Assembly: GCA_963786935.1 (NCBI GenBank)
Contig: CAWBAN010000004.1
Coordinates: 96,001 to 160,000, forward strand
Direction: 5' to 3'
Source: an uncultured bacterium
Lineage (GTDB): Bacteria > Krumholzibacteriota > Krumholzibacteriia > Krumholzibacteriales > Krumholzibacteriaceae
DNA length: 64,000 bases
Below the pieces are notes generated by a model, which searched no databases, was not told the DNA's origin, and saw nothing but the letters and a program-made list of their open reading frames with translations. Positions 38,855 through 62,428 of the stretch are shown in pieces; the first letter of the stretch is position 1, and every line of letters begins with the position of its first letter. The translations under genes were made by a program, and so were the position numbers.

Positions 38855-39129
38855 CTCGACCTCCCTGTTCTATTCGTATCTACCGGTGTGTTACCCAGGT
38901 ATCTTCCGTCGTCCGCCGTGTCCTCGCGGCGTCCGGAGGAGCGTCATTATCGCATTTGAACAGGCCTCGACGCCGAGTCCTGCACGGGTCGATCCGCATA
39001 CTGATGACTGGTAGCCTATCGGTGCGTAACCCCGGATGAAGGATCGGGGCTTCAGTGTAAACGACCGTAGACAAGAAGTCAAGTGCAGCAGCGGCCGCAA
39101 CCTGCAACGATTTTAAAGTAGAAGCTCGC

Positions 39130-39375
39130 TCCGATACGACGATGCCGGCCTTTTCGGCGAGGCGCACGAGGTCGGCCACCGATTCAGCCTCCATCTTCTG
39201 CATCACGCGGCTCCGGTGCACCTTGATCGTCTTGATCGCCGTGCCGAGCTCGAACGGGATCTGCTTGTTCAGCATCCCCTTGATGGCGCGCTTCATCACT
39301 TCCAGCTCTCTCGGCGTGAGTGCGCCGACGCGTTTCTCCATCTCCTTCTGAAGGTCGATGCCGCTCATGCCCGGA
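39130..39375 (-). pseudogene. FixJ/LuxR-type response regulator remnant
   Basis: Receiver fragment PGMSGIDLQKEM is fused directly to the HTH LTPRELEV...GMLNKQI..ELG..IKTIKVHRSRVMQKM...SVADLVRLA. The N-terminus and the mid-section are missing. Confidence 0.75.
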
Positions 39376-42217: not shown

Positions 42218-43375
42218 CTACTTCGCCCGCCCGAGCTCGATCCCCAGCGCCTCGGCCGTCCGCACGAGCTGTCCCTTCGGGTCGACCCGCTTGATCCCGT
42301 GAATCGCCGCCGTGATCGGCACCGATTCGATCCGTCTCCCCTTGAGGCACACCATATGTCCGAATTTCCCCGCGGCGATGAGGTTCACCGCCTCGACGCC
42401 GAAGCGCGTCGCGAGGATCCGGTCGAAGGTCGTCGGCATGCCTCCCCGTTGCAGGTGCCCGAGCACGGCGACGCGCGTCTCGAGGCTCGTGCAGAGGGAT
42501 ATCTTGTCCGCGACCCATTTGGCGATCCCGCCGAGGCGCCCCGGCGTGCCGTCCGCGCCCGGCTGCTTCTCGTAGATCTTCTCTCCGCCGGCGGCGTAGG
42601 CCCCCTCGGCCACGACGACGATGCTGAAGCGGCTCCCCGTGCGTTTGCGTGTTTCGATGTGGTCACAGATCTCGCCGAGGTCGAAGGGGATCTCGGGAAG
42701 GAGGATCACGTCGGCGCCGCCCGCGATTCCCGCCTCGAGGGCGATCCATCCGCAGTCGCGCCCCATGACCTCGAGGACGAGAACGCGGTGGTGGCTCTCC
42801 GCGGTCGTGTGGAGCTTGTCGAGCGCGTCGGTCGCCGTGTTGACGGCGCTGTTGAATCCGAAGGTCACGTCCGTCGCCTCGAGATCGTTGTCGATCGTCT
42901 TCGGGACCCCGACGACTTTCACGCCCTTTTCGAAAAGAGCCTGCGTGATCTTCATCGTTCCGTCGCCGCCGACCGTCACGAGGCAGTCGATCCCGAGCCG
43001 TTTTATGTTCCGGACGATTTCGCCCGAGACGTCCTTGAATACCGTCTTTCCGTTTTCGCGCACCGGATAGTGCAGCGGGTTCCCCCGGTTCGAGGTGCCG
43101 AGGATCGTACCGCCGCGCGCCTGAATGCCGCGCACGTCGTGGGAGTAGAGCATCCGGTGGGCGTCGGTCCTGAGGAGGCCGTCGAATCCGTCCTGAACGC
43201 CGAGCACCTCCCATTGGTGCTCGAGCACGGCCGCCCGCACGACGCCGCGTATGACGGCGTTGAGCCCGGGGCAGTCGCCGCCGCCGGTGAGGATGCCGAT
43301 GCGCTCAATGCCTTTCGCTTCTCGTCCCGCCGGGTTCTTCGCCCGCCCTCGTGCGCTCCGTTTCGTCTTGGCCAT
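42218..43375 (-). CDS. pfkA: 6-phosphofructokinase (PfkA family, group III-like, probably ATP-dependent)
   Basis: LTGGGDCPGLNAVIR, GGTILGTS, GGDGT, PKTIDND, TTAESHHR, EVMGR, LGHLQRGG. Confidence 0.93.
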   Translation of the reverse strand: MAKTKRSARGRAKNPAGREAKGIERIGILTGGGDCPGLNAVIRGVVRAAVLEHQWEVLGVQDGFDGLLRTDAHRMLYSHDVRGIQARGGTILGTSNRGNPLHYPVRENGKTVFKDVSGEIVRNIKRLGIDCLVTVGGDGTMKITQALFEKGVKVVGVPKTIDNDLEATDVTFGFNSAVNTATDALDKLHTTAESHHRVLVLEVMGRDCGWIALEAGIAGGADVILLPEIPFDLGEICDHIETRKRTGSRFSIVVVAEGAYAAGGEKIYEKQPGADGTPGRLGGIAKWVADKISLCTSLETRVAVLGHLQRGGMPTTFDRILATRFGVEAVNLIAAGKFGHMVCLKGRRIESVPITAAIHGIKRVDPKGQLVRTAEALGIELGRAK

Positions 43376-43612
43376 TGAAATATTTCCTTTCGGGCTGCGA
43401 CCGTCGCCTGTAGCATCTTTGCCGCCCATCATATTCATATCGCGATCGTAGTGGTAGGCAAAAAGAGAGGGTTGTATGGTCTTCGATCCTTCGCGGCCCG
43501 GCTCGATTCGCTTATCCGCTGATCGAGAAATCGCCGCAATTCTCGTAAAATCAAACTGTTGCGATTTTCCGCGCCGGGACGCCGCTTTTTCCTCCGCTGC
43601 CCCAATGATTTC

Positions 43613-43641
43613 TTGACGCCGTTTTGGGAATCTGCTATTTT
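43613..43641 (+). promoter_or_regulatory. Sigma-70-type promoter
   Basis: TTGACG-17 nt-TATTTT with extended -10 TG. Confidence 0.5.
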
Positions 43642-43736
43642 TCGCTTTCAAAAAATGCGACTGAGCAGTACATTACTCGGAATTCAGGAATCGCATAGCC
43701 GCACTATCAATCAGGCGAAAGGAGGTGTACCCAACA

Positions 43737-44502: not shown

Positions 44503-44991
44503 ATGAGAACGTGCCTCACGATGGCGGTTCTTTTCGTGATCCTCGTCGCGGCTTCCGCATCCGCGTTCGGCGGCCCGAACCTCGCCGGAACTATGGAAGC
44601 CCGCAAGATCGTCATGGGAACGGAAAACAAGGAAATCGCGGTCTCGGCCGAACAGGTGAAACCGCAGGACAAGATCGAGTACACGCTGCGCTACCGGAAC
44701 ATCGGCGACGCGTCGGCCTCCGGCGTGAGCCTCGTCGGCCCGATACCGGCAGGCACCGCGTACCTGAACGAGACGGCGACCGAGAGCGATGCCATGCGGC
44801 CGCTCTTCAGCATCGACGGCGGCGCGAGCTTCCATAAGGCGCCCGTCATGTACGTCGTGAAGAACGAAAAGGGAGAAGACGAGCGCAAGGTGGCTACCCC
44901 CGACATGTACACGCACGTCATGTGGAACGTCGCGAGCGCTCTCGAGGTCGACAAGGAAGTGGCGGTCTCCTATCGCGTGCAGGTGAAGTGA
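44503..44991 (+). CDS. Secreted single truncated DUF11-like domain protein (gene A; putative chaperone/cap)
   Basis: Signal peptide; VKPQDKIEYTLRYRNIG, LVGPIPAGTAY, FSIDGG, ends VSYRVQVK. Confidence 0.75.
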   Translation: MRTCLTMAVLFVILVAASASAFGGPNLAGTMEARKIVMGTENKEIAVSAEQVKPQDKIEYTLRYRNIGDASASGVSLVGPIPAGTAYLNETATESDAMRPLFSIDGGASFHKAPVMYVVKNEKGEDERKVATPDMYTHVMWNVASALEVDKEVAVSYRVQVK

Positions 44992-45050
44992 GGAGACCGA
45001 ATAGATAGATGGCAATGCATGGGTTGGACTCAACAAAGGAAGGTGGTCCG

Positions 45051-47741
45051 ATGAGTAAGATTCGGCTCACGGCGGCCCTCGCGCTCGTCGCGCTCTTCGT
45101 CTGCGCTGCCGCGCAGGCGCAGACGCCGGCGGGCACGACGATCCGGAACCAGGCCTCGGCGCGGTTCCAGGATCTCTCGGGCAACTCGTACACCGCGACC
45201 TCGAACGAGGTCATCACGATCGTCCTGCCGGTATACGGCGTTTCGATCCTCCCGGACGACTCGGGGGAGACTCCCCCCGTCACGCCGGCGATGATTCAGA
45301 ACGCCATTCCCGGCCAGACGCTCTACTACAGCTATAACCTGACCAATACGGGTAACGACGCCGACACCTACGCGCTGGCGCCGCTCCTCGACGCCGCCAA
45401 TTCGACGATGACCCTCGGGCTCGGGAGCATCACGATCTACCACGACGTGAACGGCAACGGCGTGCTGGACGGCGGCGAGCCTACGATCTCTTCCGGCGGG
45501 GCGCCGGGGAACCTCGGTCCAATCGCTGCCGGTGCGACAGTGAGTATCCTGGTTTCCTACCAGGTTCCCCCGGCCGCCCTCGCCGGCGAGGTTGCGTACG
45601 TCGGCGTTCAGGGAACCTCCGCCGGAGATCCGGCCCGCATCGATACCCGCAACTACCATATGACGACCGTCGTGAGCGACGCCTCGCTCACCGCGTCGAT
45701 GTCCGGACTCCCGGCGAACGTGAATCCGGGCGCCGTGATCACCTACGCGATCAACGGCTCGAACGTGGGCACGCAGGCGGCCCACGGCGTCCTCGTGGCC
45801 TCCGTCGGTCTCACGGGCGTCTTCATCTATGACGTGCTCCCGACCGATCCGACGACGGGTCTTCCGCTCGCGATCTCCGGCACGCCTTCGGGCTCGCCGG
45901 CGGGCGGGACCGTGTTGTACTTGCCCGCGGGAAGCCCGATGGTCGGCGCTCCCGAGACGTGGGCATGGCAGGCCGTGGCGGGCGCCGGCGACCTCGCCGT
46001 CGCGTACGTCACGAACGGCAATCTCGCGATCGGCCAGTTCTACAACCTGACCTACGACCTCGTCGTACCGTCGACGATGCGCGCCGGCATCATCAACAAC
46101 AGCGGCGCCGTCGCGTACGTGGACAACAATCCGGGCACGCCGGATCCGATCACCGTCACGACGAACAACACGCAGATCACCGTGAACGCGATCGCCAACG
46201 TGCTCGTCGGCCCGTCGGGTCTGCCCGCGGCCGGCACGCCGCCGAACTACGACGACGACATGCAGTCGGTGCCCGTGGCCTACGCGAACACGACCGTGTC
46301 GTTCACGAACACCGTGCGGAACGACGGGAACGCCGCGGACGCGATCAACATCGCGCTCGACGGCGCCTCGACGATTCCCGGGGGATGGAGCGTCCTGTTC
46401 TTCCGGAGCGACGGCGTCACACCGCTCACCGATACCGGAACGGACGGCATTCCCGACGTCGGCGCGCTCAATCCGGGCGCGACGAGAGACTTCATCGTCC
46501 GCATCATCATCCCGGGCGGCGCGAGCGCCGGCGGCCCGTATGACGCCGTCATCCGCGCCAACTCGACGAACAATCCGCTCGAGTCGAACCTGACGACCGA
46601 CCGGATCACGTCGGTGCAGCCCGCGGCCGTCGACATCGGCAACTTCGACGGTCTGCCCGGCACGAACAACGCGACGGTCAACATCAACGCGAATCCAGCC
46701 ACGAACGCCGACTTCGCTCTCGACGTGATCAACACGGCTGGCTCGGCGGACAACTATTCGCTCACCTCGACCGCTCCGGCGGGCTGGACCGTGACGTACT
46801 TCAACGACGCGAACGGCAACGGCCTCCTCGATCTGCCCGAGCTCGCCCCGATCGCCGGCATCGGCCCGGTGGCGGCAGGCAGCGAGGCGCACGTCATCGC
46901 GCGCGTGGCGGTTCCCGTCGGGGTCGGCCCCGGCGTGAACAACGTCGTCTTCCGCGCGACCTCGACGAACAACGGCGCGATATTCGACCAGATCACGGAC
47001 ACCGTGACGATTCTCGCCACGCCGTCCGTCGATATCGCTCCGAACCGCAACGGAACGGGCACCGCCGGCGGCACGGTTCGTTACCAGCACACGGTGACGA
47101 ACACCGGCAACGTCGACGACACGTTCCTGCTGAGCGCCGTGAGCTCCAACGGATGGAGCTACGCGTTCTTCGATCTCGCGAACAACGCGATTGCGGCGGT
47201 CAACCTCGTCGCCGGCGCGTCCCAGGACGTCGTCGTGCAGATTTCGATCCCGGGCGGCGTGCCGAACGGAACGATCGAGACCGGCACGGTCCGCGTCACG
47301 GGGAGCGGCACGGGCGCGACCGACGCGGTCACCGACGTCACGACGATCGTGGCCGGTAACCTCGTGCTCGTGAAGTCGGTCAATCCGGCCGGCGCGCAGC
47401 TGCCGGGCACCGAGCTCACGTACCGGACCGATTATTCGAACGTGGGCACCGCGGATCTCACCGCGATCGCCATCTACGACGCGATTCCCGCGTGGACCCA
47501 GTATCGCGTCGGCTCCGCCACCGTCGGGACTCTCGCGGCCGGCATCACCGGTATCGCGATCGAGTTCTCGAACGACGGCGGCGCGACGTGGACCTACACG
47601 CCGGTGAGCGGCGGCGGCGGCGCCCCGGCGAACTTCGACGCCGGTGTCACGAACGTCCGCTGGACGCTGACCGGCAATCTGGCCGGCGGCAGCGGCACGG
47701 CCGACGGCGTCGGCTTCATCGTAAGGATCGTCGCCGAATAA
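45051..47741 (+). CDS. Secreted multi-Ig/DUF11 repeat protein (gene B; putative shaft pilin)
   Basis: Signal peptide; N-terminal TPAGTTIRNQA...SNEV; repeated N(T/D)GN..D domains; DxNGNG loops; C-terminal LVKSV...PGTELTY...YDAIP domain. Confidence 0.8.
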   Translation: MSKIRLTAALALVALFVCAAAQAQTPAGTTIRNQASARFQDLSGNSYTATSNEVITIVLPVYGVSILPDDSGETPPVTPAMIQNAIPGQTLYYSYNLTNTGNDADTYALAPLLDAANSTMTLGLGSITIYHDVNGNGVLDGGEPTISSGGAPGNLGPIAAGATVSILVSYQVPPAALAGEVAYVGVQGTSAGDPARIDTRNYHMTTVVSDASLTASMSGLPANVNPGAVITYAINGSNVGTQAAHGVLVASVGLTGVFIYDVLPTDPTTGLPLAISGTPSGSPAGGTVLYLPAGSPMVGAPETWAWQAVAGAGDLAVAYVTNGNLAIGQFYNLTYDLVVPSTMRAGIINNSGAVAYVDNNPGTPDPITVTTNNTQITVNAIANVLVGPSGLPAAGTPPNYDDDMQSVPVAYANTTVSFTNTVRNDGNAADAINIALDGASTIPGGWSVLFFRSDGVTPLTDTGTDGIPDVGALNPGATRDFIVRIIIPGGASAGGPYDAVIRANSTNNPLESNLTTDRITSVQPAAVDIGNFDGLPGTNNATVNINANPATNADFALDVINTAGSADNYSLTSTAPAGWTVTYFNDANGNGLLDLPELAPIAGIGPVAAGSEAHVIARVAVPVGVGPGVNNVVFRATSTNNGAIFDQITDTVTILATPSVDIAPNRNGTGTAGGTVRYQHTVTNTGNVDDTFLLSAVSSNGWSYAFFDLANNAIAAVNLVAGASQDVVVQISIPGGVPNGTIETGTVRVTGSGTGATDAVTDVTTIVAGNLVLVKSVNPAGAQLPGTELTYRTDYSNVGTADLTAIAIYDAIPAWTQYRVGSATVGTLAAGITGIAIEFSNDGGATWTYTPVSGGGGAPANFDAGVTNVRWTLTGNLAGGSGTADGVGFIVRIVAE

Positions 47742-47932
47742 GCGGCTCGAAAGAGGCTGTGGCGGGGCGGCATCGGCCGCCCCGCCAACGGCAACTCTCT
47801 CGGGCAGGAGATGCAGCCAAGAGAAGAGAGAAGAATTTGAATAACGAGCTCCGCGGAGTCACAAGCACCCCGAACTGGAGGATGATTCGTTAAGGCGGAT
47901 CAGCCTCTAGTTCGGTTTCTGGAGGTAACAGG

Positions 47933-50900
47933 GTGAGACGGCCATCGACCAGAAGTTCGAGAAGGGGGCAACTCCTTTTCTTGCTTGCGGTTGCGTGGCT
48001 CGCCCTCTTGCCTTCGCTTTCCATGGCCGCCATTCCACCCGCCGGACAGGCAATCACGAGCAGATCGCTCGCGTACTACGAGCGGAGCGGCTCGCGGTGG
48101 AGCGCCTATTCGAACGAAATCACCGTGAACGTTTTGGCCCTGTACGGCCCGGTCGTCGAGCCGAACGGGACGGTTTCCGCGCCGGGCGCCGTCGTCCGCG
48201 CCTTCGCCGGGGAGACGGCGACCTTCGCCTTCAGCCTGAGAAACGCGGGGAACGCGGAAGACGCATTCACCCTGGCGCTCGCGTATCCCGCGCCTTCGGA
48301 CTTCGTTCCGGCGCAGTCGCGCATCTACCTCGACATCGACGGGGACAGCCTCGTCGATCCGGGGGAGCCCGCGGTCACGGATGTCGGATCCCTCGCTTCG
48401 GGCGAGGAGGTCCGGCTCGTCGTTCAGGCCGTGCTTCCCGCCGGCCTCATGGGCGGGGAATCGGCGCACGTCAATCTCGTCGCCCGCTCGCAGGCGGACA
48501 CCTCCGCGTGGGACCGGGACAACGTCGTGAGAATCACGGCCCGCGACGAGGCCGCGGTCTCGCTCGCGCTCGCCGCGGACCGCTCGGCGGCGCTGCCGGG
48601 GGATACGATCGCCTTCACGCTCCAGTTCGCGAACACGGGAGAACGCGCCGCCGCCGGCGTCGTGCCGTCGGCGCCGATCGATCTGGCGGGATCGACGGAG
48701 GGAGCCGACTACGTGAGCGGCTCGGCGGGCTCGTCCGTCGCGGGGAGCTTCGAATACTACGACGCCGCCTCTTCCGCCTGGGTCGCCGCGCCTCCTCCCG
48801 TCGATCGAATCAAGGGCATCCGCCTGCTGGCCGGCGCTCTCGCGCCGGGGGCCGCGGGGAATCTCACGTTCCGGGTGCGTGTGCGGGACGGGAGGGCGGC
48901 GGGCGTCCTGCGCGAAACGGCGGCGGTCGATTACACGGGCGGAAACGCGCAGCCGTACCGTCTCGCGTCGAACGAAGTGACCGTCACCATCGGTCGCGTG
49001 AGCTCGATCGCGATCGGCCCGCGGGGAAATCCGCTGGCCGCCTCGGGAAGCGCCGACGATCGGGTCTTTGCGAACGTCGACGGGAGCAGCGATTCGTATA
49101 CGCTCTGGCATGAGCTCCTGAACGGCGGCAACTTCGCCGACAGCGTGCGCATCGTCCTCGCCGATTCGTCCCTCATCCCGGCCGATTGGGCGATCGAGTT
49201 CGTCGATTCCAACGGCGCGCCGTTTCCGGGCGAGTCCGGGTACCGCGCGGCGGTCGGCACGGTTCCGAGCGGACGCTCGACGATCGTCGGCCTGCGGCTG
49301 AGCGCGACGGCGGAGAGCCTCAGGAGATTCGACGGGCGACAGCTCGTGTTCGCCCTCGAGGCGTCGTCGATCTTCTTCGAGGAGGCGTCGGACCGGGTGG
49401 AGGACGTCCTCGTCAAGGCGAGCATTCCGCTCGTTTCGATCGAGCAGTCGATCCGCGAGCCGACGGCGCAGATCGGCGATATCCTGAGCTTCATCGTGAC
49501 GGTCGAGAACCTGACGGAGGAAACCGCGCTCGACAGCGTCGTCGTGACGGAGGCGCTTTCGCCGGGGCTCGCCTTCGCCGCGGGGAGTCTCGTGCCGCGG
49601 ATCGCGGGGAACGATCTCGAGTGGACGCTCGACGGGCTCGAGCCGGGGGAGCGGCGCGAGATCGTGTTCCGCGCGCGGGTCAAGACGGGGCAGGAGACGG
49701 GGAGGCTCGTGAGCTCGGCGTACGTGCGCGGCGTGACGGATACGGGTGAGCCGGCGTTCGATGGCCCGGCGAGCGCCTCGATCCTCATCGTCGAAGGAAT
49801 ATTCACGCGGCGCGGGATCATCGCGGGCGGCGTGTTCGCGGACGCCGATTCGAACGGCGCCTGGGACGAGGGCGAGCGCGGCGTATGCGGCGTGTCGGTC
49901 TTCATCGACGACGGCACGTACGCGGTGACCGATTCGTTCGGGCTCTATTCGATTCCGGGCGTCGTCGAGGGACGGCACGTCGTGCGGATCGATCCGGCGT
50001 CCGTCCCCGACGGCTTCGAGCCGGGCGCGAGCGGCTTCTACGGGTTCGGCGTCGCCGGCGAGATGCTCGTCGATCTCGCCCCGTCGGGGCACCGGCGCGC
50101 CGATTTCGCGCTCGTCCGGTCGAGCGGCCCGTCACGCGAAGCGGGCGGCGCCGCCGCGGCCGATTCGTCCGCCTCGACGGCGCGCGAGGCGGCCGCCGTC
50201 GCCGCGGCGGAGTCCGGGAGACCGGGGCAGTCGTTCAACGCGATCACCATTCCGAGCTCGCACTTCGAGGCGGGAGAGGCCGCGATCGGAGGCATTCCGC
50301 TGAATCGCGTCGCCGCCCTGTCGCTCTGGATCAAGGATCACCCGGGCTGGAGCATCTACATCGAGGGGCACACCGACAGCATTCCCATCGCGAGCGCCGC
50401 GTATCCGTCGAATCTCGAGCTTTCGATCGCCCGCGCCCGCTCCGTGTTCCAGCTCCTCCGCATGAACGGCATTCCCGAGGAACGCATGGATTACACGGGC
50501 TGCGGCTCGCGGGAGCCGGTCGCGTCGAACGCGGGCGAGGAAGGGCGCGCGCTCAACCGCCGCGTCGAGATACTCATCGTGCCGCCCGCCGATTACACCG
50601 GCGGGGATCCGGGGCTCCCCGAGATCCTCGAGCGCTCCGAGCACAAGGAGTACGCGCTGGCCGATTCGACGGGAATCTGCGCGGGCATCGTCGCGCCGGC
50701 CGAGGGAACGATCTTCTTCTCGCGCGGCGAGATCGACGTCGAAATCGTCTCTCCCCTCGGCTCCGACGTCGAGCTCTACGTGAACGGGCTCCCGGTCGGC
50801 AAGGACCGGATCGGCCTCAAGAAGATCGACATCGCCAGCGGCATCTTCGGCTCGATCTTCTACGGCGTGAAGATCGCCGAGGGCAAGAACGACATCCTCG

Positions 50901-53683
50901 TCGTGTGCCGCGAGTACGGCGGCACGCGCAACACGTGCGTCCGGCACGTCTACCTCGCGGGACAGCCGAAGCTCATCACGCCGGAGCGCGAGATCGTCAC
51001 GCTCCCCGCCGACGGCAAGACGGCGGGCGAGATCGTCTTCCTCGTGAGCGACGGGAACGGGCTCCCGGTCCGCGACGGCATTTTCGTCACGGTGACCGGC
51101 GCCGAGGATATCGTCGCGGGTCTCGACGCGAATCCGCAGGTGCAGGGCATCCAGGCGGCGACCGCCAACGGCCGCGTCATCGTCGCGCTCCCGCCGATGC
51201 GCGATTCGCGGAAAGAGCGGATCGGCGTGGCGCTGAACGGCGTCTCAGCCGGCGCCCGCGCCGTGTACGAAGCGCCGCTCCGGAACTGGTTCCTCTTCGG
51301 CCACGGCGAAGCGGAGCTCGGCTACAGCGATCTCACCGGAACGGGGAGCACGGAGCGCCTGATGGAAACGCAGCACGACGGCGCGTTCGTGGACGGAAAG
51401 CTCTCGTTCTACGGACAGGGCGAGATCAGGAGCGGGCATCTGCTCACGTGCGCCGTCGACACGCGGCCGGTCAAGGACGACATGCTCTTCAGGCGCATCG
51501 ATCCCGAGAAATACTATCCGATATACGGCGACGCGAGCGAGCTCAGGTTCAACGCCGCCTCGCGGAGCGGCACGTTCCTGCGGCTCGATCACCGCAGATA
51601 CGCGGCGATGCTCGGCGATTTCCGGACCGATTTCAGCGAGGCCGAGTTCACGAAATATCATCGCTCGTTCAACGGCGTCTCGGGAGAGGCGCGGTTTTCG
51701 CAGGGTGACGTGAAGGCGTTCGTCACGAAGGCCGATCAGGTTACCTATCAGGAGGAGTTCCGCGCCGAGGGGACGAGCGGCTTCTATTTCCTCTCCCACT
51801 ATCCGCTCGTCGAGAACAGCGAGAAGATCCGCGTCGAGGTGCGCGACCGGTACCGCTCCGAGCGCATCGTCCGCGTCGACTACAAGCTCGTCGAGCGCGA
51901 CTACGACATCAACTACATGGACGGGAGCATTCTCTTCAAAGAGAGCGTCCCCGCCTTCGACGAGAACCTGAATCCCGTGACGATCGTCGTGAGCTACGAA
52001 TGCCGCGGCGCCGGCGACAACAACTTCATCTACGGGTTCCGGTCGGCGGTGGGAGTGGCGGACAGTCTCGAGCTCGGGACGACCGCGGTGCTCGAGCAGG
52101 AGGGCGTGGAGAACTACACGCTCCTCGGATTCGATCTCGCGGGCCGGGTTTTCGAGGGGCTCGCGGTCGAGGGAGAGTTCGCGCACAGCGAGAAGTTCCT
52201 CCTCGGCGGCGGCACGGCGTTCCGCGTTCTCCTGCGGGACGAGGGGACCGGCGCCGTCCGGTGGAACGCGTACTACCGCGCGATCGACGAGAGCTTCTTC
52301 AACTCCTCGTTCTCGGGCGGCAAGACGGAGCTCGGGAGCGTCAAGATCGGCGGCGAGCTCGATTGGCGGCTGAACCGGGGATTCGGGGCGAGCGCGCAGG
52401 CGTACCGCCACACGTATCAGGAGCGGGACGAGCGGAAGGACTACGCGGATCTCGTGGCGCGGTACGCGGCCGGCGTTCTCGAATGGCGGGCGGGCTTCGC
52501 CGCGGCCGGCCACAGCGACACGCGCGACGGGGATCAGGCGTCGGTGCTCATGCTCACCGGCGTCTCGTACAAGAACGCGGGGACCACGGCGGAGGCCGGA
52601 TGGGATCAGATCCTCGCGGGGGACGAGGTCGACGATTACCCGAACCGGCTCCAGGCGAAGTTCTCGAAGCGTGTCTGGCGCGGCGTCGCGGCGGCGCTCA
52701 AGTACGAGTACCGCACCGGCAGCCGCTCGGGAACGCGGCACTTCACCCAGATCGGGCTCGAATCGAATATCACCGAGAGCATGCAGGCGTACACGCGGTA
52801 TCAGGTCGACGGCGCGATGGGGGGCCAGCGCGGCCAGGCGACGATGGGGATCAGAAACCGGTTCGTCCTCGCCGCGGATCTCACCGGGACCGTCGCGGTG
52901 GAAAAGCTCGCGACGGTGAGCGGGAACGCGGCGGAGGATTACCTGTCGATTTCGACCGGCGCGCTGTACACGCCGGCGCATAAGGATTATCGCGTGAAGG
53001 GGAACTACGAGATCAGGATCGAGCCGCTGCGCGCCAAGCACCTCGCCGAGCTCGCGGCGATCAAGCGCCTGAGCGAGCGGTGGAGCGCCATCGTGAAGGG
53101 GGATCTCTGGTTCTCCGACGAGGAGATCGAGAACAACCACGTCAAGGGGAGCTCGACGATCGGGATCGCCGTGCGGCCGCATTCCTCGCGGACGGTCGAG
53201 GTCCTCTCCCTCGTCAAGACGGCGTACGAGAAGAACAGCCCCGCGCATCCGGAAGCGGTCGACAAGGAGAACCTCGCGTCGATCGAGGCGACGTGGACGC
53301 CGAGCCCGGCGTGGGAGCTCGAGGGCAAGGTCGCGGCGCGCCGGATCGAAAACTCGTTCAGGGACTACTCGGCGGACGCGTCGGCGTTCCTGTATCAGGT
53401 GCAGGCGATCCGCGTGATCGCGCGGAAGTGGGACGTCGCACTCAAGGCGCGCTTCGTGCATCAGAACGAGACGGCGACGACGAGCTACGGCGGAGGCCTC
53501 GAGCTCGGCCGTCTCGTCACCGGCAACCTGTGGGTCGGCGCGGGATACGATTTCGGGGGACACGAGGATCCCGACGCGCCGGTCAACGGCTTCGAGCGCA
53601 GGGGATTCCATTTCGGCATGAGGCTCAAGTTCAACGAGAAGATCCTCGAGTACTGGGACGGCGGCAGGGAGGTCGGCGAATGA
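47933..53683 (+). CDS. Large outer-membrane protein: Ig/DUF11 repeats, SdrD-B-like domain, OmpA-like domain and C-terminal beta-barrel (gene C; putative base/usher)
   Basis: GGAGG RBS and GTG; GGVFADADSNGAWDEGE; IEGHTDS..NLELSIARA..NRRVEI; about 800 aa of amphipathic strands ending GFHFGMRLKF. Confidence 0.82.
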   Translation: MRRPSTRSSRRGQLLFLLAVAWLALLPSLSMAAIPPAGQAITSRSLAYYERSGSRWSAYSNEITVNVLALYGPVVEPNGTVSAPGAVVRAFAGETATFAFSLRNAGNAEDAFTLALAYPAPSDFVPAQSRIYLDIDGDSLVDPGEPAVTDVGSLASGEEVRLVVQAVLPAGLMGGESAHVNLVARSQADTSAWDRDNVVRITARDEAAVSLALAADRSAALPGDTIAFTLQFANTGERAAAGVVPSAPIDLAGSTEGADYVSGSAGSSVAGSFEYYDAASSAWVAAPPPVDRIKGIRLLAGALAPGAAGNLTFRVRVRDGRAAGVLRETAAVDYTGGNAQPYRLASNEVTVTIGRVSSIAIGPRGNPLAASGSADDRVFANVDGSSDSYTLWHELLNGGNFADSVRIVLADSSLIPADWAIEFVDSNGAPFPGESGYRAAVGTVPSGRSTIVGLRLSATAESLRRFDGRQLVFALEASSIFFEEASDRVEDVLVKASIPLVSIEQSIREPTAQIGDILSFIVTVENLTEETALDSVVVTEALSPGLAFAAGSLVPRIAGNDLEWTLDGLEPGERREIVFRARVKTGQETGRLVSSAYVRGVTDTGEPAFDGPASASILIVEGIFTRRGIIAGGVFADADSNGAWDEGERGVCGVSVFIDDGTYAVTDSFGLYSIPGVVEGRHVVRIDPASVPDGFEPGASGFYGFGVAGEMLVDLAPSGHRRADFALVRSSGPSREAGGAAAADSSASTAREAAAVAAAESGRPGQSFNAITIPSSHFEAGEAAIGGIPLNRVAALSLWIKDHPGWSIYIEGHTDSIPIASAAYPSNLELSIARARSVFQLLRMNGIPEERMDYTGCGSREPVASNAGEEGRALNRRVEILIVPPADYTGGDPGLPEILERSEHKEYALADSTGICAGIVAPAEGTIFFSRGEIDVEIVSPLGSDVELYVNGLPVGKDRIGLKKIDIASGIFGSIFYGVKIAEGKNDILVVCREYGGTRNTCVRHVYLAGQPKLITPEREIVTLPADGKTAGEIVFLVSDGNGLPVRDGIFVTVTGAEDIVAGLDANPQVQGIQAATANGRVIVALPPMRDSRKERIGVALNGVSAGARAVYEAPLRNWFLFGHGEAELGYSDLTGTGSTERLMETQHDGAFVDGKLSFYGQGEIRSGHLLTCAVDTRPVKDDMLFRRIDPEKYYPIYGDASELRFNAASRSGTFLRLDHRRYAAMLGDFRTDFSEAEFTKYHRSFNGVSGEARFSQGDVKAFVTKADQVTYQEEFRAEGTSGFYFLSHYPLVENSEKIRVEVRDRYRSERIVRVDYKLVERDYDINYMDGSILFKESVPAFDENLNPVTIVVSYECRGAGDNNFIYGFRSAVGVADSLELGTTAVLEQEGVENYTLLGFDLAGRVFEGLAVEGEFAHSEKFLLGGGTAFRVLLRDEGTGAVRWNAYYRAIDESFFNSSFSGGKTELGSVKIGGELDWRLNRGFGASAQAYRHTYQERDERKDYADLVARYAAGVLEWRAGFAAAGHSDTRDGDQASVLMLTGVSYKNAGTTAEAGWDQILAGDEVDDYPNRLQAKFSKRVWRGVAAALKYEYRTGSRSGTRHFTQIGLESNITESMQAYTRYQVDGAMGGQRGQATMGIRNRFVLAADLTGTVAVEKLATVSGNAAEDYLSISTGALYTPAHKDYRVKGNYEIRIEPLRAKHLAELAAIKRLSERWSAIVKGDLWFSDEEIENNHVKGSSTIGIAVRPHSSRTVEVLSLVKTAYEKNSPAHPEAVDKENLASIEATWTPSPAWELEGKVAARRIENSFRDYSADASAFLYQVQAIRVIARKWDVALKARFVHQNETATTSYGGGLELGRLVTGNLWVGAGYDFGGHEDPDAPVNGFERRGFHFGMRLKFNEKILEYWDGGREVGE

Positions 53684-56600
53684 CGGCACGGCGCATCATG
53701 ACGATCCTCGCCGCCGCGGCGCTCGTGCTGTGCGTCCGGCCGGGCCCCGCGCGCGCCGGCGAGCTCGTGCAGAACGGCGGCTTCGAGACGGGCGGCTTCT
53801 CCGGCGGATGGGTCGACGGCGCGGGGCAGCTCTCGAGCGGGCAGACGAATCCGGCCTGGGCGGACCACCTGGTGACGCTCGATCTCCCGTTCGCTGGCAA
53901 CTACTCGGCGCTGATCGGATTCAAGTACGCGCAGATTCGAGGGAACCGGTTCGGATTCATCTATCAGGACGTAGCGATCCCGTCGAACGTCTCGCGCGCG
54001 GACCTCTTCTTCAAGTTCCGCCAGCAGGGCTGGGACGGCAACTTCTACGATCCGTTCCGCATGCAGATCCGCGCCACGAACAACGCGGTTCTCGCGACGG
54101 TGATCGAATACTCGTTCGCCGAGGCGAACCATCTCTTCAAGGATTCGGGCTGGCTCGACGACAACAACGCCGTGCCCGTCGGCTATTCGATGACCGCCTA
54201 CGCGGGGCAGACGGTGCGGCTGTACTTCTATCAGGAGAACAGCTTCAACAACTTCTACGAGACGTGGACGTACATCGACGACGTCTCGCTCGTCTTCCGG
54301 CGGTGGGTCGACCTCGCCGTCGACGGAAACGGAAACGACCTCTTCGGCGCCGCGGGGACCGGCGCCGGCGGCTCCTCGATCAAGAGCGCCGAGCAAGGGG
54401 AGACGCTCTCCTATATAATGGATATAGAGAACGAGGGGCCCGACGGCGATTCCTACCGTCTCACGGCGAATCCTCCCGCCGGCTGGACGGCGTCCATCCG
54501 CTACAACGGCACGATCTATCCCTTCCCGTGGAATTCGCCCGTGATCCCCGCCGGCTCGAAGATCCAGGCGGAAGTCGTGCTGACCGTTCCTTTCGGCGCG
54601 GCGGTGAACGGCTACTCGACGATCGTCGACGCGGTCTCGAGAAATTTCGCGAACCGCTACGACAGCGTCCGGCTCGGCACGAACGTCGTGCCCGCCGATT
54701 TCCTCGCCGACGCGATCATCGACGCGAACGGGTTCGGCGTGATCGATCCGGCGGGCGGGGGCGGCATCGCGTACCGCGAGGCGGTTCCGGGCGCGCAGGC
54801 GAGCTACGTGCTCGAGGTGTTCAACGAGGGCGTTCAGGCCGATTCCTTCCGGATCCGCTGGAGCGCGGCGGCGCCCCTCACGATCGCCGTGCTCGACGGC
54901 GGCACGGTCCGCGCGCGGGCCTTCAGCACGGCGCTCGTCCCGAGCATGGGCTCCGTGTCGTTCACGGTGCGGGCGACGGTCCCGGCGTCGACCCTCGGCG
55001 GCGACTACACGAGCATCGTGTACGCGACGTCGCTCACCGACACGCTCAAGCGGGACGCCGTGCGCGCGGTCACGCGCGTCCTGGCGCCGAAGGTCGACAT
55101 GATCATCGGCGGGAGCGGCGACGGCATCATCGACGCGACCGGCGCCGGCCTCGGCGGCGCCACGACCGTCGCGGCGGGAGTGGGAACGACCATCTCGTTC
55201 CCCTTCATTCTCCAGAACGAGGGGGCCGTCGCCGATTCCTTCACGCTCTCCTGGACGAGCCCGGGCGCCGGCTGGACCGCGCGCGTCAACGACGGCGCCG
55301 CGGACCACGCGCTCACCTGGCGGACGCCGACGATGGCGCCGTTCAGCGCGCGCAATCTCGTGCTCATGGTGACGGTGCCGGCGGGGGCGTCGTACGACAC
55401 CTACAAATCGATTCTCAACGCCGTTTCGTCGGTTTCGGCGCCCGCGCGCGAGAGCGTCACGGCCTCGATATCCGTCTCGAGCGGAAACGAAATCGATCTC
55501 ATCATCGACGGGAACGGGGACAACGTCTACGGGTACCTCGGCACGGCGCTCGGCGGAAGCTCGGTCAAAACGGCTACGCCGGGGGACACGGTCACGTTCG
55601 CGATCGCCGTCCAGAACGAGTCGGGGGAGAATCTCTTCGACATCTGGTGGAACGGTCCCCCCGGATGGGACGTCCTCATCGGGGACTCCACGTCGACGAT
55701 GCGCCGCGTGACGGCGGGGCTCTACACGCTGACCGTGCGCGTTCCGGCCGGCTGCGCGGGAGGGACGTTCGACGTCGTCGTCGACGGCGTGAAGACGAAC
55801 AAACGGTATTACGTCGACAGCGTGCGGGGCCGCCTCGTCGTCTCGGCGCCGCGCGTCGTCGACGCCCTCATCGACGGGAACGGCGACGGAGCGTTCGGCG
55901 GGACGGGGACCGGCGCCGGCGGCTCTTCCTCGCAGACGACGACCGCCGGGAGAACGGTGCGATTCACCGTCGAGCTCCAGAACCAGGGGAGCGCGCCGGA
56001 GAGCTACCGGGTGAGCTGGAACACGATCCCCGATTACATCGCCACGCTGCAGGGATACGCGTCGCCGTACCTGACGGCTTCCGTCGCGCCGGGCGGGGCG
56101 GCGCTCCTCAGCTTCGCCGTGCGGGTTCCCTACACGGCGGCGGCGGGGGATCTCGACTACGTCCTCGACGTCGTTTCGACGATCGACACGGGCAACGTCG
56201 AGAGCGTGCGCGCGCGCGTTCACGTCAATCCCCCGCCGCGCGCCGACCTCGTGATCAACGGGGACGGCGCGTTCGATTCGGCGCCTCCGGGCTCGGGGGA
56301 CGGGGGACGGGCGCTCGTGTTCGGGAGCCCCGGCACCGAGGTGACCGCCGTGCTCGAGCTCTGGAACCGCGGCGGGTTCGCCGATTCGTTCCGCGTCACG
56401 TGGAGCCCGCCCGCCGGGTGGCCCGCCGGTTCGGTCGTGCTCTCGGACGGCTCGGGGGATCACGCGTCCCCGTACCTCGTCGGCGTCATCGATCCGGGCG
56501 AATCCCGGGTGTTCACCGTGCGCGTGTTCATCCCCGCCGGCGCCGCGCTGCGGACGCCGATCATCATCGACGGCATCGCGCTGTCGCGCGATCTCGAGGA

Positions 56601-57657
56601 CTCGGTGACCCTCGAGGCCGCGATCAGCTCGTTCGTCACGGGCGTCGTGTTCAACGACAAGGATCATGACGGGGCTCTGGACGCGGGCGAAGAGGGATGG
56701 ATCGGCGTCACGGTGACCCTCTCCGATCCGGGCGGCCCGCTCGTCCGGCAGACGGACGGATCGAGCTCCTATCTCTTCGAGGTGCCGGCCGGCGTCGCGC
56801 GCGAGCTCGCGGAGACGACTCCCGTCGGCATGATCTCGCTTTCGCCGGACGTCGTTTCGCTCCCGGCCCCCGCTCCCGGAGAAACGCTCCGCGTCGATTT
56901 CGCGGACGTCCGGGTGCCGGCGATCGCGCCGGCGAACAACCTGAGCTGTCCGGCGGGAAGCTTCGTCGATTTCCCGCATGTGATCACGGCGGGAACGGGC
57001 GGGCAGGCCGCGGTCGCCGCAACGCTGCCCGCCGGGTGGATCGAAGCCTTCTACCGGGACAACGACGGAAGCGGCACGATGAGCGCGGGCGATTCACTGC
57101 TCACCGCCGCGGACCTCGCGCTCGATCCCGATTCGGCGCGATTCGCGGCGGTGCCGATCGTCATGCGCGTCTTCGTGCCGGCGCAGACGAGCGCGGGGAC
57201 GCTCGCTTCGATCCCCGTCACGCTGCGCCAGACGCTTTCGGGCACGGCGATCGAGGTGGAGGTCACCGTCCTCGACCGGCTCCTCGTGCTCGCGCAGGCG
57301 AGCGGCCTGCTCAATCTCGCCAAAGTCGTGGATCTCGCCGAGGCGCATCCGGGCGACACCATGACCTACTCGATCACGTTCTCCAATCCCGGCACGGAAG
57401 GAGTACGAGAGATCGAGATCATCGATCCGCTGTCGTCGTCGGTCGATCTCGTTCAGGGAGCGTTCGGGCCCGGCAGGGACGTCGAGTGGTTGAAGGACGG
57501 CGTCCCGGTCTATCTCACCGCCGACCCGCTGGACGCCGACGAGGCGATGTACGTGGCGGCCGACGGCACCCTGCGCGTGATCCTCTCGAGGCTCGCGCTC
57601 TACACGCTCGAAAGCGGCGCGACGGGACGAATCACGTATCGAGTCAGGATCCGCTGA
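53680..57657 (+). CDS. Secreted protein: N-terminal CBM-like domain, Ig repeats, SdrD-B-like domain and C-terminal DUF11 (gene D; putative tip adhesin)
   Basis: ATGA overlap with gene C; signal peptide; ELVQNGGFETG..W..YIDDVSL; repeated D(L/A)(I/A)(I/V)DGNG; LAKVV..PGDTMTY..IIDPL..ITYRVRIR. Confidence 0.8.
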   Translation: MTARRIMTILAAAALVLCVRPGPARAGELVQNGGFETGGFSGGWVDGAGQLSSGQTNPAWADHLVTLDLPFAGNYSALIGFKYAQIRGNRFGFIYQDVAIPSNVSRADLFFKFRQQGWDGNFYDPFRMQIRATNNAVLATVIEYSFAEANHLFKDSGWLDDNNAVPVGYSMTAYAGQTVRLYFYQENSFNNFYETWTYIDDVSLVFRRWVDLAVDGNGNDLFGAAGTGAGGSSIKSAEQGETLSYIMDIENEGPDGDSYRLTANPPAGWTASIRYNGTIYPFPWNSPVIPAGSKIQAEVVLTVPFGAAVNGYSTIVDAVSRNFANRYDSVRLGTNVVPADFLADAIIDANGFGVIDPAGGGGIAYREAVPGAQASYVLEVFNEGVQADSFRIRWSAAAPLTIAVLDGGTVRARAFSTALVPSMGSVSFTVRATVPASTLGGDYTSIVYATSLTDTLKRDAVRAVTRVLAPKVDMIIGGSGDGIIDATGAGLGGATTVAAGVGTTISFPFILQNEGAVADSFTLSWTSPGAGWTARVNDGAADHALTWRTPTMAPFSARNLVLMVTVPAGASYDTYKSILNAVSSVSAPARESVTASISVSSGNEIDLIIDGNGDNVYGYLGTALGGSSVKTATPGDTVTFAIAVQNESGENLFDIWWNGPPGWDVLIGDSTSTMRRVTAGLYTLTVRVPAGCAGGTFDVVVDGVKTNKRYYVDSVRGRLVVSAPRVVDALIDGNGDGAFGGTGTGAGGSSSQTTTAGRTVRFTVELQNQGSAPESYRVSWNTIPDYIATLQGYASPYLTASVAPGGAALLSFAVRVPYTAAAGDLDYVLDVVSTIDTGNVESVRARVHVNPPPRADLVINGDGAFDSAPPGSGDGGRALVFGSPGTEVTAVLELWNRGGFADSFRVTWSPPAGWPAGSVVLSDGSGDHASPYLVGVIDPGESRVFTVRVFIPAGAALRTPIIIDGIALSRDLEDSVTLEAAISSFVTGVVFNDKDHDGALDAGEEGWIGVTVTLSDPGGPLVRQTDGSSSYLFEVPAGVARELAETTPVGMISLSPDVVSLPAPAPGETLRVDFADVRVPAIAPANNLSCPAGSFVDFPHVITAGTGGQAAVAATLPAGWIEAFYRDNDGSGTMSAGDSLLTAADLALDPDSARFAAVPIVMRVFVPAQTSAGTLASIPVTLRQTLSGTAIEVEVTVLDRLLVLAQASGLLNLAKVVDLAEAHPGDTMTYSITFSNPGTEGVREIEIIDPLSSSVDLVQGAFGPGRDVEWLKDGVPVYLTADPLDADEAMYVAADGTLRVILSRLALYTLESGATGRITYRVRIR

Positions 57658-58810
57658 CGACGTCGATCACCGTCTTCACGACGTAATCGATTTCCTTCTC
57701 CGTCAGCTTGGGATAGAGCGGAAGGCTGATCGTGCGGGCGCCGATATCCTCGGCGACGGGAAACGCGCCCGGCCGGTAGCCGTAGCGTTCGCGGTAATAC
57801 GTCATCAGGTGCACGGGGTAGAAGTTCACCGAAACGCCGACGCCGCGGTTCTGGATCTCCTCGAGGATCCGGTCGCGCCGCGCGCGGTCGACGAGGATCG
57901 TGAAGAGGTGGCACGCGTGCCGCGCCTCGGGCCGCCTCGTGTGGATCTCGATGCCGTCGACGTCGCGGAACGCGTCCGCGTAGCGCTCGTAGATCTCGGC
58001 GCGGCGCGCGAGGAAGCCCTCGAGCTTCCCGAGCTGCTCCACGAGAATCGCCGCGTGGATGTTGTCCATGTTGTATTTCCAGCCGAAGACGTCGACGTCG
58101 TACCGCTCGAAATGGTTCGAGTATCGCTCCTGGGCGCTCTTGTCGAAGCCGTGGAGCCGGAGCTTTTTCAGGAGCTCCGTCTTCGCCGCGTTCCGCGACG
58201 AGATCGCGCCTCCCTCTCCCGAGGTGATGTTCTTGGTCGCGTAGAAGCTGAAGCACGCGAAGTCGCCGTAATGTCCCGGTTTCCTGCCGTTCCATTCCGA
58301 CTCGAGCGAGTGGGCGGCGTCCTCGACGACGACGAGCCCGCGCTTCCGCGCGATGTCGCCGATGGCCGTCATGTCGCACATCTGTCCGTAGAGATGGACG
58401 GGCATGATCGCCCGCGTCCGATCGGTGATCGCGGCCTCCACGCACGCGGGGTCGATGTTCGCCGTCGCGCGATCGACGTCGGCGAACACGGGGGTGGCCC
58501 CCGCCATGATGACGCTGTTCGCCGTGCCGATGAAGGTGACCGGCGTGGTGATGACCTCGTCCCCTGGCCCGATTCCCGATGCCAGAAGGGCGAGCTGCAT
58601 CGCCGCCGTGCAGCTCGTCACGGCCACGGTGGAGGGAAGGCCGAGATAGGAGGCGAGCCCCTGCTCGAACTCGCTGACCTCGTCTCCGGTCGTGAGGAAG
58701 AGCGAGCGGAACACGCGCTCGACGCGCTGGAGCTCCTCCTCGCCGATGTTATGCTTGCAGTACTCGACTTTTCGTTTCAATGCGCCTCGTCTCCCGACCC
58801 GGTGCGTCAT
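57644..58810 (-). CDS. DegT/DnrJ/EryC1/StrS (ArnB-like) sugar aminotransferase
   Basis: SCTAAM, GPGDEVIT, PVHLYG, EDAAH, FSFYATKNITSGEGG, ISLPLYP. Start may be TTG 58780. Confidence 0.92.
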   Translation of the reverse strand: MTHRVGRRGALKRKVEYCKHNIGEEELQRVERVFRSLFLTTGDEVSEFEQGLASYLGLPSTVAVTSCTAAMQLALLASGIGPGDEVITTPVTFIGTANSVIMAGATPVFADVDRATANIDPACVEAAITDRTRAIMPVHLYGQMCDMTAIGDIARKRGLVVVEDAAHSLESEWNGRKPGHYGDFACFSFYATKNITSGEGGAISSRNAAKTELLKKLRLHGFDKSAQERYSNHFERYDVDVFGWKYNMDNIHAAILVEQLGKLEGFLARRAEIYERYADAFRDVDGIEIHTRRPEARHACHLFTILVDRARRDRILEEIQNRGVGVSVNFYPVHLMTYYRERYGYRPGAFPVAEDIGARTISLPLYPKLTEKEIDYVVKTVIDVVSGS

Positions 58811-62301: not shown

Positions 62302-62399
62302 GCGGAGCATTCTCCTTCGTGGATCGGGATGCCGTATCGATGCCTCAAATGCGTAATCTAAAGGTAAAGTAAGGCTTCTGAAGGCCGGAAGCCACAACA

Positions 62400-62428
62400 A
62401 TTATAGCAGAAAGCCCTCCGATCTCCAA
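62400..62428 (-). promoter_or_regulatory. Sigma-70-type promoter
   Basis: Minus strand TTGGAG-17 nt-TATAAT with extended -10 TG. Confidence 0.55.

Follow-up and report, generated by a model that had tools for sequence, protein, structure and literature searches.

An uncultured bacterium of the Krumholzibacteriota (GenBank assembly GCA_963786935.1; 3.26 Mb in 5 contigs, 96.5% complete) carries four genes that probably encode the parts of a surface fibre. We analysed these genes, here called A, B, C and D, in a stretch of 64,000 nucleotides of contig CAWBAN010000004.1 (positions 96,001 to 160,000; hereafter the window, to which all coordinates refer). A preceding interpretation of the letters of the window (the sequence-only reading) had proposed four co-oriented secreted genes at this place, which gene calls and readable signal peptides bear out. 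All four genes lie on the forward strand. Gene A (44503-44991) encodes 162 amino acids with a Sec-type signal peptide, cut between ASASA and FGG. The open reading frame of gene B opens at 45009, and Met15 offers the better Shine-Dalgarno and signal-peptide start; counted from there (45051-47741), B comprises 896 amino acids, with the cut between AAQA and QTPAG, and is the putative shaft subunit. Gene C (47933-53683) encodes a putative anchor protein of 1916 amino acids (cut between LSMA and AIPPAG), and gene D (53680-57657), whose ATG start codon overlaps the TGA stop codon of C, a putative tip protein of 1325 amino acids (cut between PARA and GELV). The signal peptides were judged by eye rather than by a predictor. 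Pfam searches identified DUF11 (PF01345) in A (27.2 bits, cut-off 24.6), C (62.2 bits) and D (42.3 bits), and its sister family DUF7507 (PF24346) in B (37.6 bits, cut-off 27). TIGR01451 matches were present in all four proteins. In addition, B and D contain NPCBM_assoc-type immunoglobulin (Ig)-like domains and C an SdrD_B domain.

Three of the proteins terminate in a domain that stops early. A, B and D break off at the F strand of a DUF11/CLIPPER-type domain, and the end pattern x-Y/F-x-V-x-V/I-x directly precedes the stop codon (VSYRVQVK in A, VGFIVRIVAE in B and ITYRVRIR in D). Pfam matches of the terminal domains cover only the first half of the profiles (positions 2-61, 2-51 and 7-56 of 114); since these domains carry an insertion, half-profile matches alone are no proof of truncation. 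In A, this acceptor domain follows the signal peptide. The acceptor domain of B comprises residues 766-896 (47346-47738) and includes Lys775 (codon 47373-47375) and Asp810 (codon 47478-47480), while that of D (57292-57654) includes Lys1215 (57322-57324) and Asp1249 (57424-57426).

The two missing strands stand at the N-terminus of mature B and C. Both proteins begin with a beta-hairpin, 2-4 residues past the signal-peptide cut, that follows the pattern PAG..I.N/S.S.A.Y/F ... SNE(V/I).(T/V).V. The mature N-terminus reads QTPAGTTIRNQASARF..SNEVITIV in B and AIPPAGQAITSRSLAYY..SNEITVNV in C. The donor hairpin of B spans residues 24-60 (45120-45230) and holds the invariant pair Ser51-Asn52 (Asn52 codon 45204-45206); that of C spans residues 33-70 (48029-48142), with Ser60-Asn61 at the corresponding place (Asn61 codon 48113-48115). 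A hidden Markov model (HMM) of the B donor hairpin recognized the hairpin of C with an independent E-value (i-E) of 3.4e-6, and a donor-hairpin HMM run over all 25,184 six-frame open reading frames of the genome matched only B and C. The N-terminal hairpins and C-terminal ends are thus present as the sequence-only reading had quoted them, and its division of roles (D and A acceptor only, B both donor and acceptor, C donor only) agrees with our reading of the sequences and with the donor HMM.

It had further been claimed that the hairpins match the last strands of complete DUF11 domains inside the same proteins. Such tails do exist at the positions named, namely at residues 345-380 of B (46083-46190) and 326-355 of C (48908-48997). 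The tail in C is matched clearly by a donor profile of the wider family (i-E 1.1e-6). The match to the tail in B is weak (i-E 0.017), as is the profile-profile alignment of the hairpin with the internal domain of B, in which hhalign placed 11 columns correctly with an E-value of 0.12. The proposed likeness is therefore clear for C and weak for B, and rests more on position and conservation than on score.

To model the junction, the acceptor end of B (residues 755-896) was folded together with its N-terminal part (residues 24-212), using an alignment of 94 sequences, three runs and three controls. The interface score ipSAE reached 0.91 in three of three runs, versus 0.00 for the best of the three controls. 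The models contained 116-117 confident contacts, agreed in at least 94% of their contacts from run to run, and had a predicted local distance difference test (pLDDT) value of at least 89 for the partner. In calibration, 116 of 157 solved complexes reached the mark, as did 2 of 215 mismatched pairs, counts that apply only roughly here because a custom alignment was used for the B:B fold. On the donor side the interface consisted of residues 24-61 and 102, and hence essentially of the hairpin; on the acceptor side it involved strand A (771-777), residues 781-795 and 801-816, and the C-terminus (893-896). The first strand of the hairpin paired with residues 805-809, the second with 773-775 and 783-784. 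This is the outcome that the sequence-only reading had expected of such a check, with the N-terminal hairpin predicted to complete the C-terminal domain of a partner. The fold model supports, but does not demonstrate, binding of the B hairpin to the B acceptor.

The same model brings together residues known from isopeptide bonds. DUF11, renamed CLIPPER in a 2025 survey, is described there as a CnaA-like domain with an intramolecular isopeptide bond established by crystallography (PMC12617251). In structure 9IFR the triad is Lys715, Asp748 and Asn806, and the Pfam range 712-812 starts three residues ahead of Lys715 and ends six residues past Asn806; in DUF7507 the triad is Lys72, Asp112 and Asn152 (PMC12617251). 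As far as that source gives these positions, they match Lys775 (context LVLVK) and Asp810 (IYDAIP) of the B acceptor and Asn52 (TSNEV) of the B donor, the last of which lies six residues before the end of the hairpin. That is, the published triad would be split between two chains. The mapping relies on the residue numbers in the survey, on Pfam coordinates and on predicted contacts, because 9IFR was not retrieved by sequence; B likewise has no relative by sequence in the Protein Data Bank (PDB). In the fold, Lys775 lies against Ser51 and Asn52, at an expected error of 0.4 Å. We had also considered Asn33 (TIRNQAS) as the reactive residue, which would have implied a non-covalent junction to C; this candidate was rejected, since Asn52 (SNEV) is favoured both by the contacts in the fold and by where Asn806 lies in 9IFR, and C keeps the equivalent Asn.

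Lys775, Asp810, Ser51 and Asn52 are invariant in 94 homologues of B (60-95% identity). The D acceptor has the Lys and the Asp in 17 of 17 distinct sequences each, and the C donor hairpin has the Asn in 42 of 44. Among more distant cluster representatives, Asn was found in 123 of 130 sequences, Asp in 60 of 63 (the other 3 having Glu), and Lys in 36 of the 38 that could be aligned at this position (25 were unaligned there). In an alignment of 45 members at about 30% identity, Asn51, Lys773 and Asp814 were each conserved in at least 90%. The terminal domains differ from an intramolecular CLIPPER domain in that they stop at the F strand, the Asn-bearing hairpin being at the N-terminus of B and C. 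The intact internal DUF11-like domains of B and C lack Lys in their first strand, and an isopeptide bond is therefore expected only at the split junctions. Judged from the sequences, the reactive set is present precisely where the domain is split. Of the earlier proposal of Lys-Asn isopeptide bonds, the residues have thus held up, and the bond itself is what we infer from them: an isopeptide between Lys775 and Asn52 probably forms autocatalytically at the junction.

We then asked how far this arrangement extends and surveyed 55 related loci from genome contigs. Of the 54 loci that include the start of B, 53 showed the hairpin (the motif search missed L064). Complete B genes ended in RI(I/V)AE or TVRIQ in 47 of 48 cases, all 53 A genes ended in the pattern YRxxV(K/R/E/Q), and the 19 complete D genes shared the same kind of terminal strand. 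Gene order was conserved to a similar degree: in 53 of 53 loci A was the gene immediately upstream of B, C followed B in all 43 loci with enough DNA to tell, and D followed C in 30 of 31 (the exception being L067). The neighbourhood survey suggested by the sequence-only reading thus returned a conserved gene set. B was present in 31 of 41 related genomes and, counting just those with a completeness of 90% or more, in 16 of 23. None of the other three proteins is as well conserved: the listed full-length homologues of B share 57-95% identity at a length of about 880-920 amino acids, and 404 homologues were recognized at E <= 1e-5 among 8,000 candidates scored. Those that have database names are listed merely as 'hypothetical', 'TIGR01451 repeat protein', 'DUF11 domain-containing', 'membrane protein' and, once, 'trimeric autotransporter adhesin'.

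Beyond these genomes, residues 24-212 of B were compared with 1.84 billion cluster representatives, and 1,126 proteins matched at E <= 0.001, 292 of them at E <= 1e-10. Among the best 150 of the 1,126, the donor profile detected the hairpin in 131, within the first 70 residues in 129. Seventy-nine of these 150 are 750-1300 amino acids long, of which 63 have an acceptor domain at the C-terminal end, while 17-18 exceed 1,700 amino acids and end like outer-membrane proteins. The names obtained for ten distant representatives were confined to 'hypothetical protein' and 'TIGR01451 family', for two of them. In the one distant metagenomic lineage sampled (GC content 46-53%), B is 37% identical over residues 24-212 (phmmer) and the gene order is the same, with A-like, B-like and C-like genes and a fourth gene whose N-terminus is of another kind and whose C-terminus lies beyond the contig stretch reached. 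Look-alike clusters of about 880 amino acids in the Atlas were commonest in Deinococcota, Pseudomonadota, Acidobacteriota and Fidelibacterota and serve as leads only. Two further loci deserve mention. In L024 (G023:C1:2885000-2904500), homologues of C and D with 56-58% identity occur, and within this 19.5 kb stretch there is no match to A or B. The bins that include operon contigs L029 and L031, with B 75% identical, bear the titles 'Patescibacteria group bacterium' and 'Candidatus Micrarchaeota archaeon', and these contigs are probably mis-binned or mislabelled.

Protein D has been read as an acceptor with a lectin head, and its N-terminal domain agrees with this at the level of the fold. Residues 27-225 (53758-54354), modelled from 29 orthologues, form a jelly roll like that of carbohydrate-binding modules (CBMs), with a pLDDT of 90.4 and a predicted template modelling score (pTM) of 0.87. 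Foldseek retrieved CBM16, CBM4, CBM22, CBM61 and newer porphyran- and alginate-binding modules, with E-values from 5e-7 and target-normalised template modelling (TM) scores of up to 0.68. The comparison of model and solved structures thus supports a CBM-like head for D. In L067, the slot behind C (about 16826-18100) is occupied by a shorter secreted protein whose N-terminal head is of another type and whose truncated acceptor is the same, including the Asp (LILDTIP, then GTVSFSVVVQ before the stop). Given this other N-terminus, and that of the fourth gene in the distant lineage, the tip head looks exchangeable.

Protein C combines a stalk related to B with what appears to be an outer-membrane anchor. 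Its N-terminal part is 30% identical to the N-terminal half of B (E 2.3e-32). An OmpA-like peptidoglycan-binding domain follows at residues 795-876 (50315-50560; Pfam 43.7 bits; 7rjj_A with E 8.4e-14). For the remainder, residues 890-1916 were modelled with AlphaFold2 from 31 orthologues, with a mean pLDDT of 75.8 and a pTM of 0.54. The model shows two Ig-like beta-sandwich domains (residues ~919-1114; 50687-51274; strands at 44-224 of the modelled part) and then a very large beta-barrel (residues ~1120-1916; 51290-53680), which matches no Pfam family. Its nearest solved relatives according to Foldseek were Deinococcus SlpA, MtrB, LptD and the type 9 translocon SprA, at TM scores of about 0.2; no usher was among the 50 best matches. 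Both the OmpA-like domain and the giant barrel foreseen for C are hence recovered by Pfam, AlphaFold2 and Foldseek.

The small protein A retains Lys35 and has Gly79 (codon 44737-44739) at the position of the catalytic Asp, reading LVGPIP where B reads IYDAIP. Among 54 distinct A sequences, the position of the catalytic Asp is occupied by Gly in 36 and by Asp itself in 18, and that of the Lys by Lys in 46, by Arg in 7 and by Leu in 1. The sequences form two clades: in the clade of the window, all 36 have Gly with the Lys kept, whereas the 18 of a more distant clade have Asp, which 10 of them combine with Lys, 7 with Arg and 1 with Leu. Two A-like proteins of the distant metagenomic lineage have Gly at the Asp position as well. 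Because Gly79 replaces the catalytic Asp, the junction made by A is probably non-covalent in the clade of this genome. A more general rule, that A is always non-covalent, had been suggested by 11 loci in which A never combined Lys and Asp; it was rejected, because 10 of the 54 sequences, all from the more distant clade, have both. Two roles would fit A: it may bind the hairpin of B or C as a headless distal cap, or as a chaperone-like protecting cover.

Directly 3' of the B stop codon lies a very stable, GC-rich stem-loop (47745-47805, forward strand; -49.8 kcal/mol, z -5.98, matched by none of 200 shuffles). A U tract is lacking, and a terminator scan of the gap between B and C found nothing, the stem-loop included. 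A stem-loop of differing sequence occurs at the same place in most orthologous loci; in 29 of 47, the 90 nucleotides behind the B stop codon fold better than all 20 control windows within the B gene. This element may act as an attenuator or as a 3' stabiliser of the mRNA that sets the ratio of A and B to C and D. Its presence together with the high conservation of B gives a hint, and only that, of a major subunit produced in larger amounts than C and D. The conserved stem-loop comes after a transcription unit common to A and B, an arrangement that would also suit A as a 1:1 partner of B. Four metatranscriptome runs of one study, searched with the A-B stretch itself, contained contigs 90-99% alike on A and B; these contigs cannot rank genes and the libraries may hold DNA, so that expression level and the thin cover of C and D are uninformative.

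Taken together, we propose that A-D encode a linear surface fibre of the order D-(B)n-C, built by hairpin complementation of a split CLIPPER domain and probably locked covalently, a reading to which we assign a probability of roughly two in three. In this fibre, the hairpin of one subunit would insert into the open last domain of the next, a form of donor-strand complementation with a hairpin, and the completed domain would bring Lys, Asp and Asn together for an autocatalytic Lys-Asn isopeptide bond. The hairpin of C would enter the last domain of a B, the hairpin of that B the next B, and the hairpin of the last B would enter D, or A. Since the counts of donors and acceptors leave one order, the chain would be linear, with D and its carbohydrate-binding head at the distal end, repeated B subunits, each with its C-terminus towards the cell, and C at the proximal end. 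There, the N-terminal stalk of C, homologous to that of B, would continue into an anchor fixed by the giant outer-membrane barrel and the OmpA-like peptidoglycan-binding domain. More speculatively, the barrel with its two then periplasmic Ig-like domains might also be the export pore for B and D, in which case the stalk of C would have to thread through it, the OmpA-like domain staying in the periplasm. The tip-shaft-base filament of the sequence-only reading is in this way supported as far as it can be computed, by the roles of the proteins, the B:B fold and the synteny; homopolymerisation of B in the cell is what we infer from these.

Several observations weigh against this proposal. The evidence for the junction and the bond is entirely computational. 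A fold of two fragments is blind to whether they pair in trans or in cis, and the high ipSAE may in part come from pieces that jointly resemble an intact DUF11 domain known to the model; we argue for pairing in trans because the counts are unequal, with three acceptors (A, B and D) and two donors (B and C). By themselves the hairpins match no Pfam family, their likeness to the internal tail of B is weak by sequence (i-E 0.017; hhalign E 0.12), and a PDB sequence search with the D acceptor did not retrieve 9IFR. The barrel model is of moderate confidence (pLDDT 75.8, pTM 0.54) and bears only a generic likeness to solved giant barrels (TM about 0.2). The OmpA-like domain must be periplasmic, yet it sits between the N-terminal stalk of C and the barrel, and no export route for B and D was recognized. 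Finally, A is not uniform, the Asp being missing in 36 of 54 sequences and Lys and Asp both being present in 10.

The alternative that survives best is a tethered adhesin of fixed length, in which one D, one or a few B and one C are joined and little B-to-B joining occurs in the cell. The donor and acceptor counts also permit D-B-C, A lies in the transcription unit of B and could cap most B hairpins, and a filament is a prediction from the genes. Yet the ipSAE of 0.91 against 0.00 was obtained for B:B itself, the donor and acceptor of B keep the full triad in 94 of 94 homologues, and B is the most conserved protein and is followed by the conserved stem-loop, as expected of a major subunit in excess. 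We regard a fixed-length tether as unlikely.

Still less probable, in our judgement, are ordinary monomeric DUF11 adhesins, that is, four separate proteins in which the hairpin closes the C-terminal domain of its own chain or packs on a neighbouring domain. The fragment fold does not distinguish this from pairing in trans, and DUF11 proteins are usually single-chain stalks, according to the available text of the survey (PMC12617251). Closure in cis would nevertheless leave three of the four proteins unsatisfied, as A and D have an open acceptor without a hairpin and C a hairpin without an open acceptor. The Ig-like chain of 896 amino acids would also have to bend back on itself, and there would be no explanation for why the genes occur together so strictly, and in the same order, throughout the phylum and in the distant lineage. 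A two-dimensional, S-layer-like coat anchored by C, in which hairpin-joined chains also pack sideways, is the least probable alternative by a small margin, for although B is constant in length and highly conserved and the nearest solved barrels include the envelope connector SlpA of Deinococcus, one donor and one acceptor per subunit give chains rather than sheets, a tip protein with an exchangeable head suits a fibre, and the available description of Deinococcus HPI makes it a lipoprotein with neither a donated hairpin nor an isopeptide.

How, then, does the proposed D-(B)n-C fibre relate to known systems? In the 96.5%-complete genome, we found no match to the usher family PF00577, none to the PapD-like chaperone family PF00345 (PapD_N), for which the same search was positive in an E. 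coli control, and none to the sortase family PF04203; A, B and D close with a beta strand and carry no LPXTG there. The absence of a visible sortase, PapC usher or PapD from the window thus extends to the whole assembly. Chaperone-usher pili comprise a FimH or PapG tip, a FimA or PapA rod, the PapH terminator, the chaperone FimC or PapD and the usher FimD or PapC, as outlined in the available parts of two articles (PMC11821415, PMC9715654). Similar to these, the system described here would have a tip with an N-terminal sugar-binding head and a C-terminal acceptor, a rod that is both donor and acceptor, and a base at an outer-membrane barrel; an incomplete Ig-like subunit would be completed by its neighbour's N-terminal extension, which is here a prediction. 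In contrast to chaperone-usher pili, the donor is a two-strand hairpin rather than one strand, the subunits are of the CnaA-like DUF11 and not of the pilin fold, neither a PapD-like chaperone nor an usher is encoded, the junction is probably covalent, and the base protein C unites in one chain a donor, a barrel and an OmpA-like domain.

Donor-strand complementation together with an intermolecular isopeptide bond has been reported twice, as far as the accessible portions of the two reports describe it: for an archaeal thread (PMC9715654) and for BsaA (PMC11580942). BsaA of Clostridium perfringens, a member of the TasA family, assembles by 'donor-strand exchange and lock', in which an N-terminal donor bearing an Asn inserts into the neighbouring subunit; an intermolecular Asn-Lys isopeptide then forms with acid catalysis from the acceptor (N35, K74 and E56), and mutants lose their oligomers (PMC11580942, in the text available). 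Donor Asn, acceptor Lys and acceptor acid meet at the junction in both systems, a likeness of mechanism and not of membership. BsaA differs in fold and family, is a single-domain protein of a Gram-positive bacterium with a SipW-type signal peptidase, and has neither a barrel anchor nor a tip adhesin. In line with this, the Peptidase_M73 profile of the TasA/camelysin group scored 14 bits (cut-off 22.5, E 0.045) on the last domain of D and had no match in the other terminal domains. The thread of Sulfolobus acidocaldarius (Saci_0406) consists of Ig-like subunits joined head to tail by donor-strand complementation, with intermolecular isopeptides proposed (PMC9715654, in the sections available). 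It shares with our proposal that such subunits are joined without chaperone-usher machinery. Unlike the present system, it is archaeal, has another fold, no DUF11 and no outer membrane, and its bond is described as joining Asn57 of subunit n+2 with the N-terminal amine of Asp24; BsaA, too, has no outer membrane around it.

The survey of CLIPPER domains treats, in its available text, only intramolecular bonds and describes no split domains (PMC12617251). With CLIPPER (DUF11) and CLIPPER_2 (DUF7507) of fibrillar adhesins, the proteins studied here share the Pfam family and, as far as it is documented, the Lys/Asp/Asn triad. The known bond stays inside a single domain of a single chain, where it stiffens a stalk, whereas here the Asn-bearing strands are located at the opposite end of the protein or on a different one and the bond would join chains. 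SpyTag/SpyCatcher is an engineered split CnaB-type isopeptide domain, with Lys and acid on one piece, the partner residue on the other and a single-strand tag. As there, the split pieces would dock and lock spontaneously; unlike there, the split would be natural, affect a CnaA-like domain and serve polymerisation. The type V pili of Bacteroidota (FimA, Mfa1), as far as the literature at hand describes them, are likewise strand-exchange fibres without chaperone or usher, and stem from a related group, the Fibrobacterota-Chlorobiota-Bacteroidota (FCB). Type V pilins are lipoprotein precursors that are activated by proteolysis and use C-terminal donor strands. B differs in that its signal peptide (cut between AQA and QT) lacks a lipobox Cys and its donor is N-terminal.

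Further leads were discarded. A relationship of B to the Deinococcus S-layer protein HPI was rejected, HPI being a lipoprotein for which the accessible text mentions neither hairpin donation nor an isopeptide. Tafi turned out to be irrelevant, as its 'DUF11' hits are DUF1102, and so did F-ENA, in which DUF11 is only a spacer in an anchor protein. A full-text literature search, outside of which most subscription journals lie, turned up no paper on either a split DUF11 fibre or the A-B-C-D gene set. Within the literature searchable in this way, the system can thus still be called undescribed, as the sequence-only reading had supposed.

The genes that flank A-D are unrelated and lie on the opposite strand; they encode a phosphofructokinase, a tetratricopeptide repeat (TPR) protein, a DegT-type aminotransferase and a papain-like protease. 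The phosphofructokinase gene (42218-43651, reverse strand) adjoins the operon and is near it in 31 of 55 related loci, which we take as a conserved chromosomal context rather than a functional link. On the other side, the reverse strand at 58807-62400 encodes a secreted papain-family protease of 1197 amino acids (Peptidase_C1, 179 bits) with a right-handed beta-helix. Its C-terminus shows a FlgD_ig match and a sub-threshold match to Por_Secre_tail (23.3 bits, cut-off 27), the latter of which hints at type 9 secretion in the organism; B and D have no tail of this type. The region further upstream encodes a GerE/LuxR-type regulator (38880-39368) and two large sulfatases (33636-38854, reverse strand; 217 and 228 bits against Pfam Sulfatase). 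These genes would agree with a polysaccharide-degrading lifestyle and with the CBM-like head of D.

A wider interpretation is also conceivable, and we put it forward tentatively, at a little less than even odds. The fibre might represent a new class of pili of double-membraned bacteria, spread over several phyla and defined by the split CLIPPER interface and its irreversible lock, with C as terminator, anchor and pore in one, and A as a reversed chaperone that, up to the time of assembly, caps the hairpin instead of the groove. The interface would then be a natural counterpart of SpyTag/SpyCatcher, and the logic of chaperone-usher pili would have evolved independently.

If the proposed D-(B)n-C fibre exists, bacteria of the Gram-negative type would possess a further route to adhesive fibres, with subunits that weld themselves together and no need for chaperone, usher, sortase or type IV machinery. 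DUF11/CLIPPER, a very common domain, would gain an intermolecular role, and a large set of proteins of about 900 and about 2,000 amino acids, now annotated as 'hypothetical' or 'TIGR01451 repeat', would be explained. The split domain would also provide natural, orthogonal tag-and-catcher pairs for protein engineering, and the claim can be tested directly with one recombinant protein, B. For the Krumholzibacteriota, which are known only from metagenomes, the CBM-like tip would offer a first idea of how these bacteria attach to polysaccharides.

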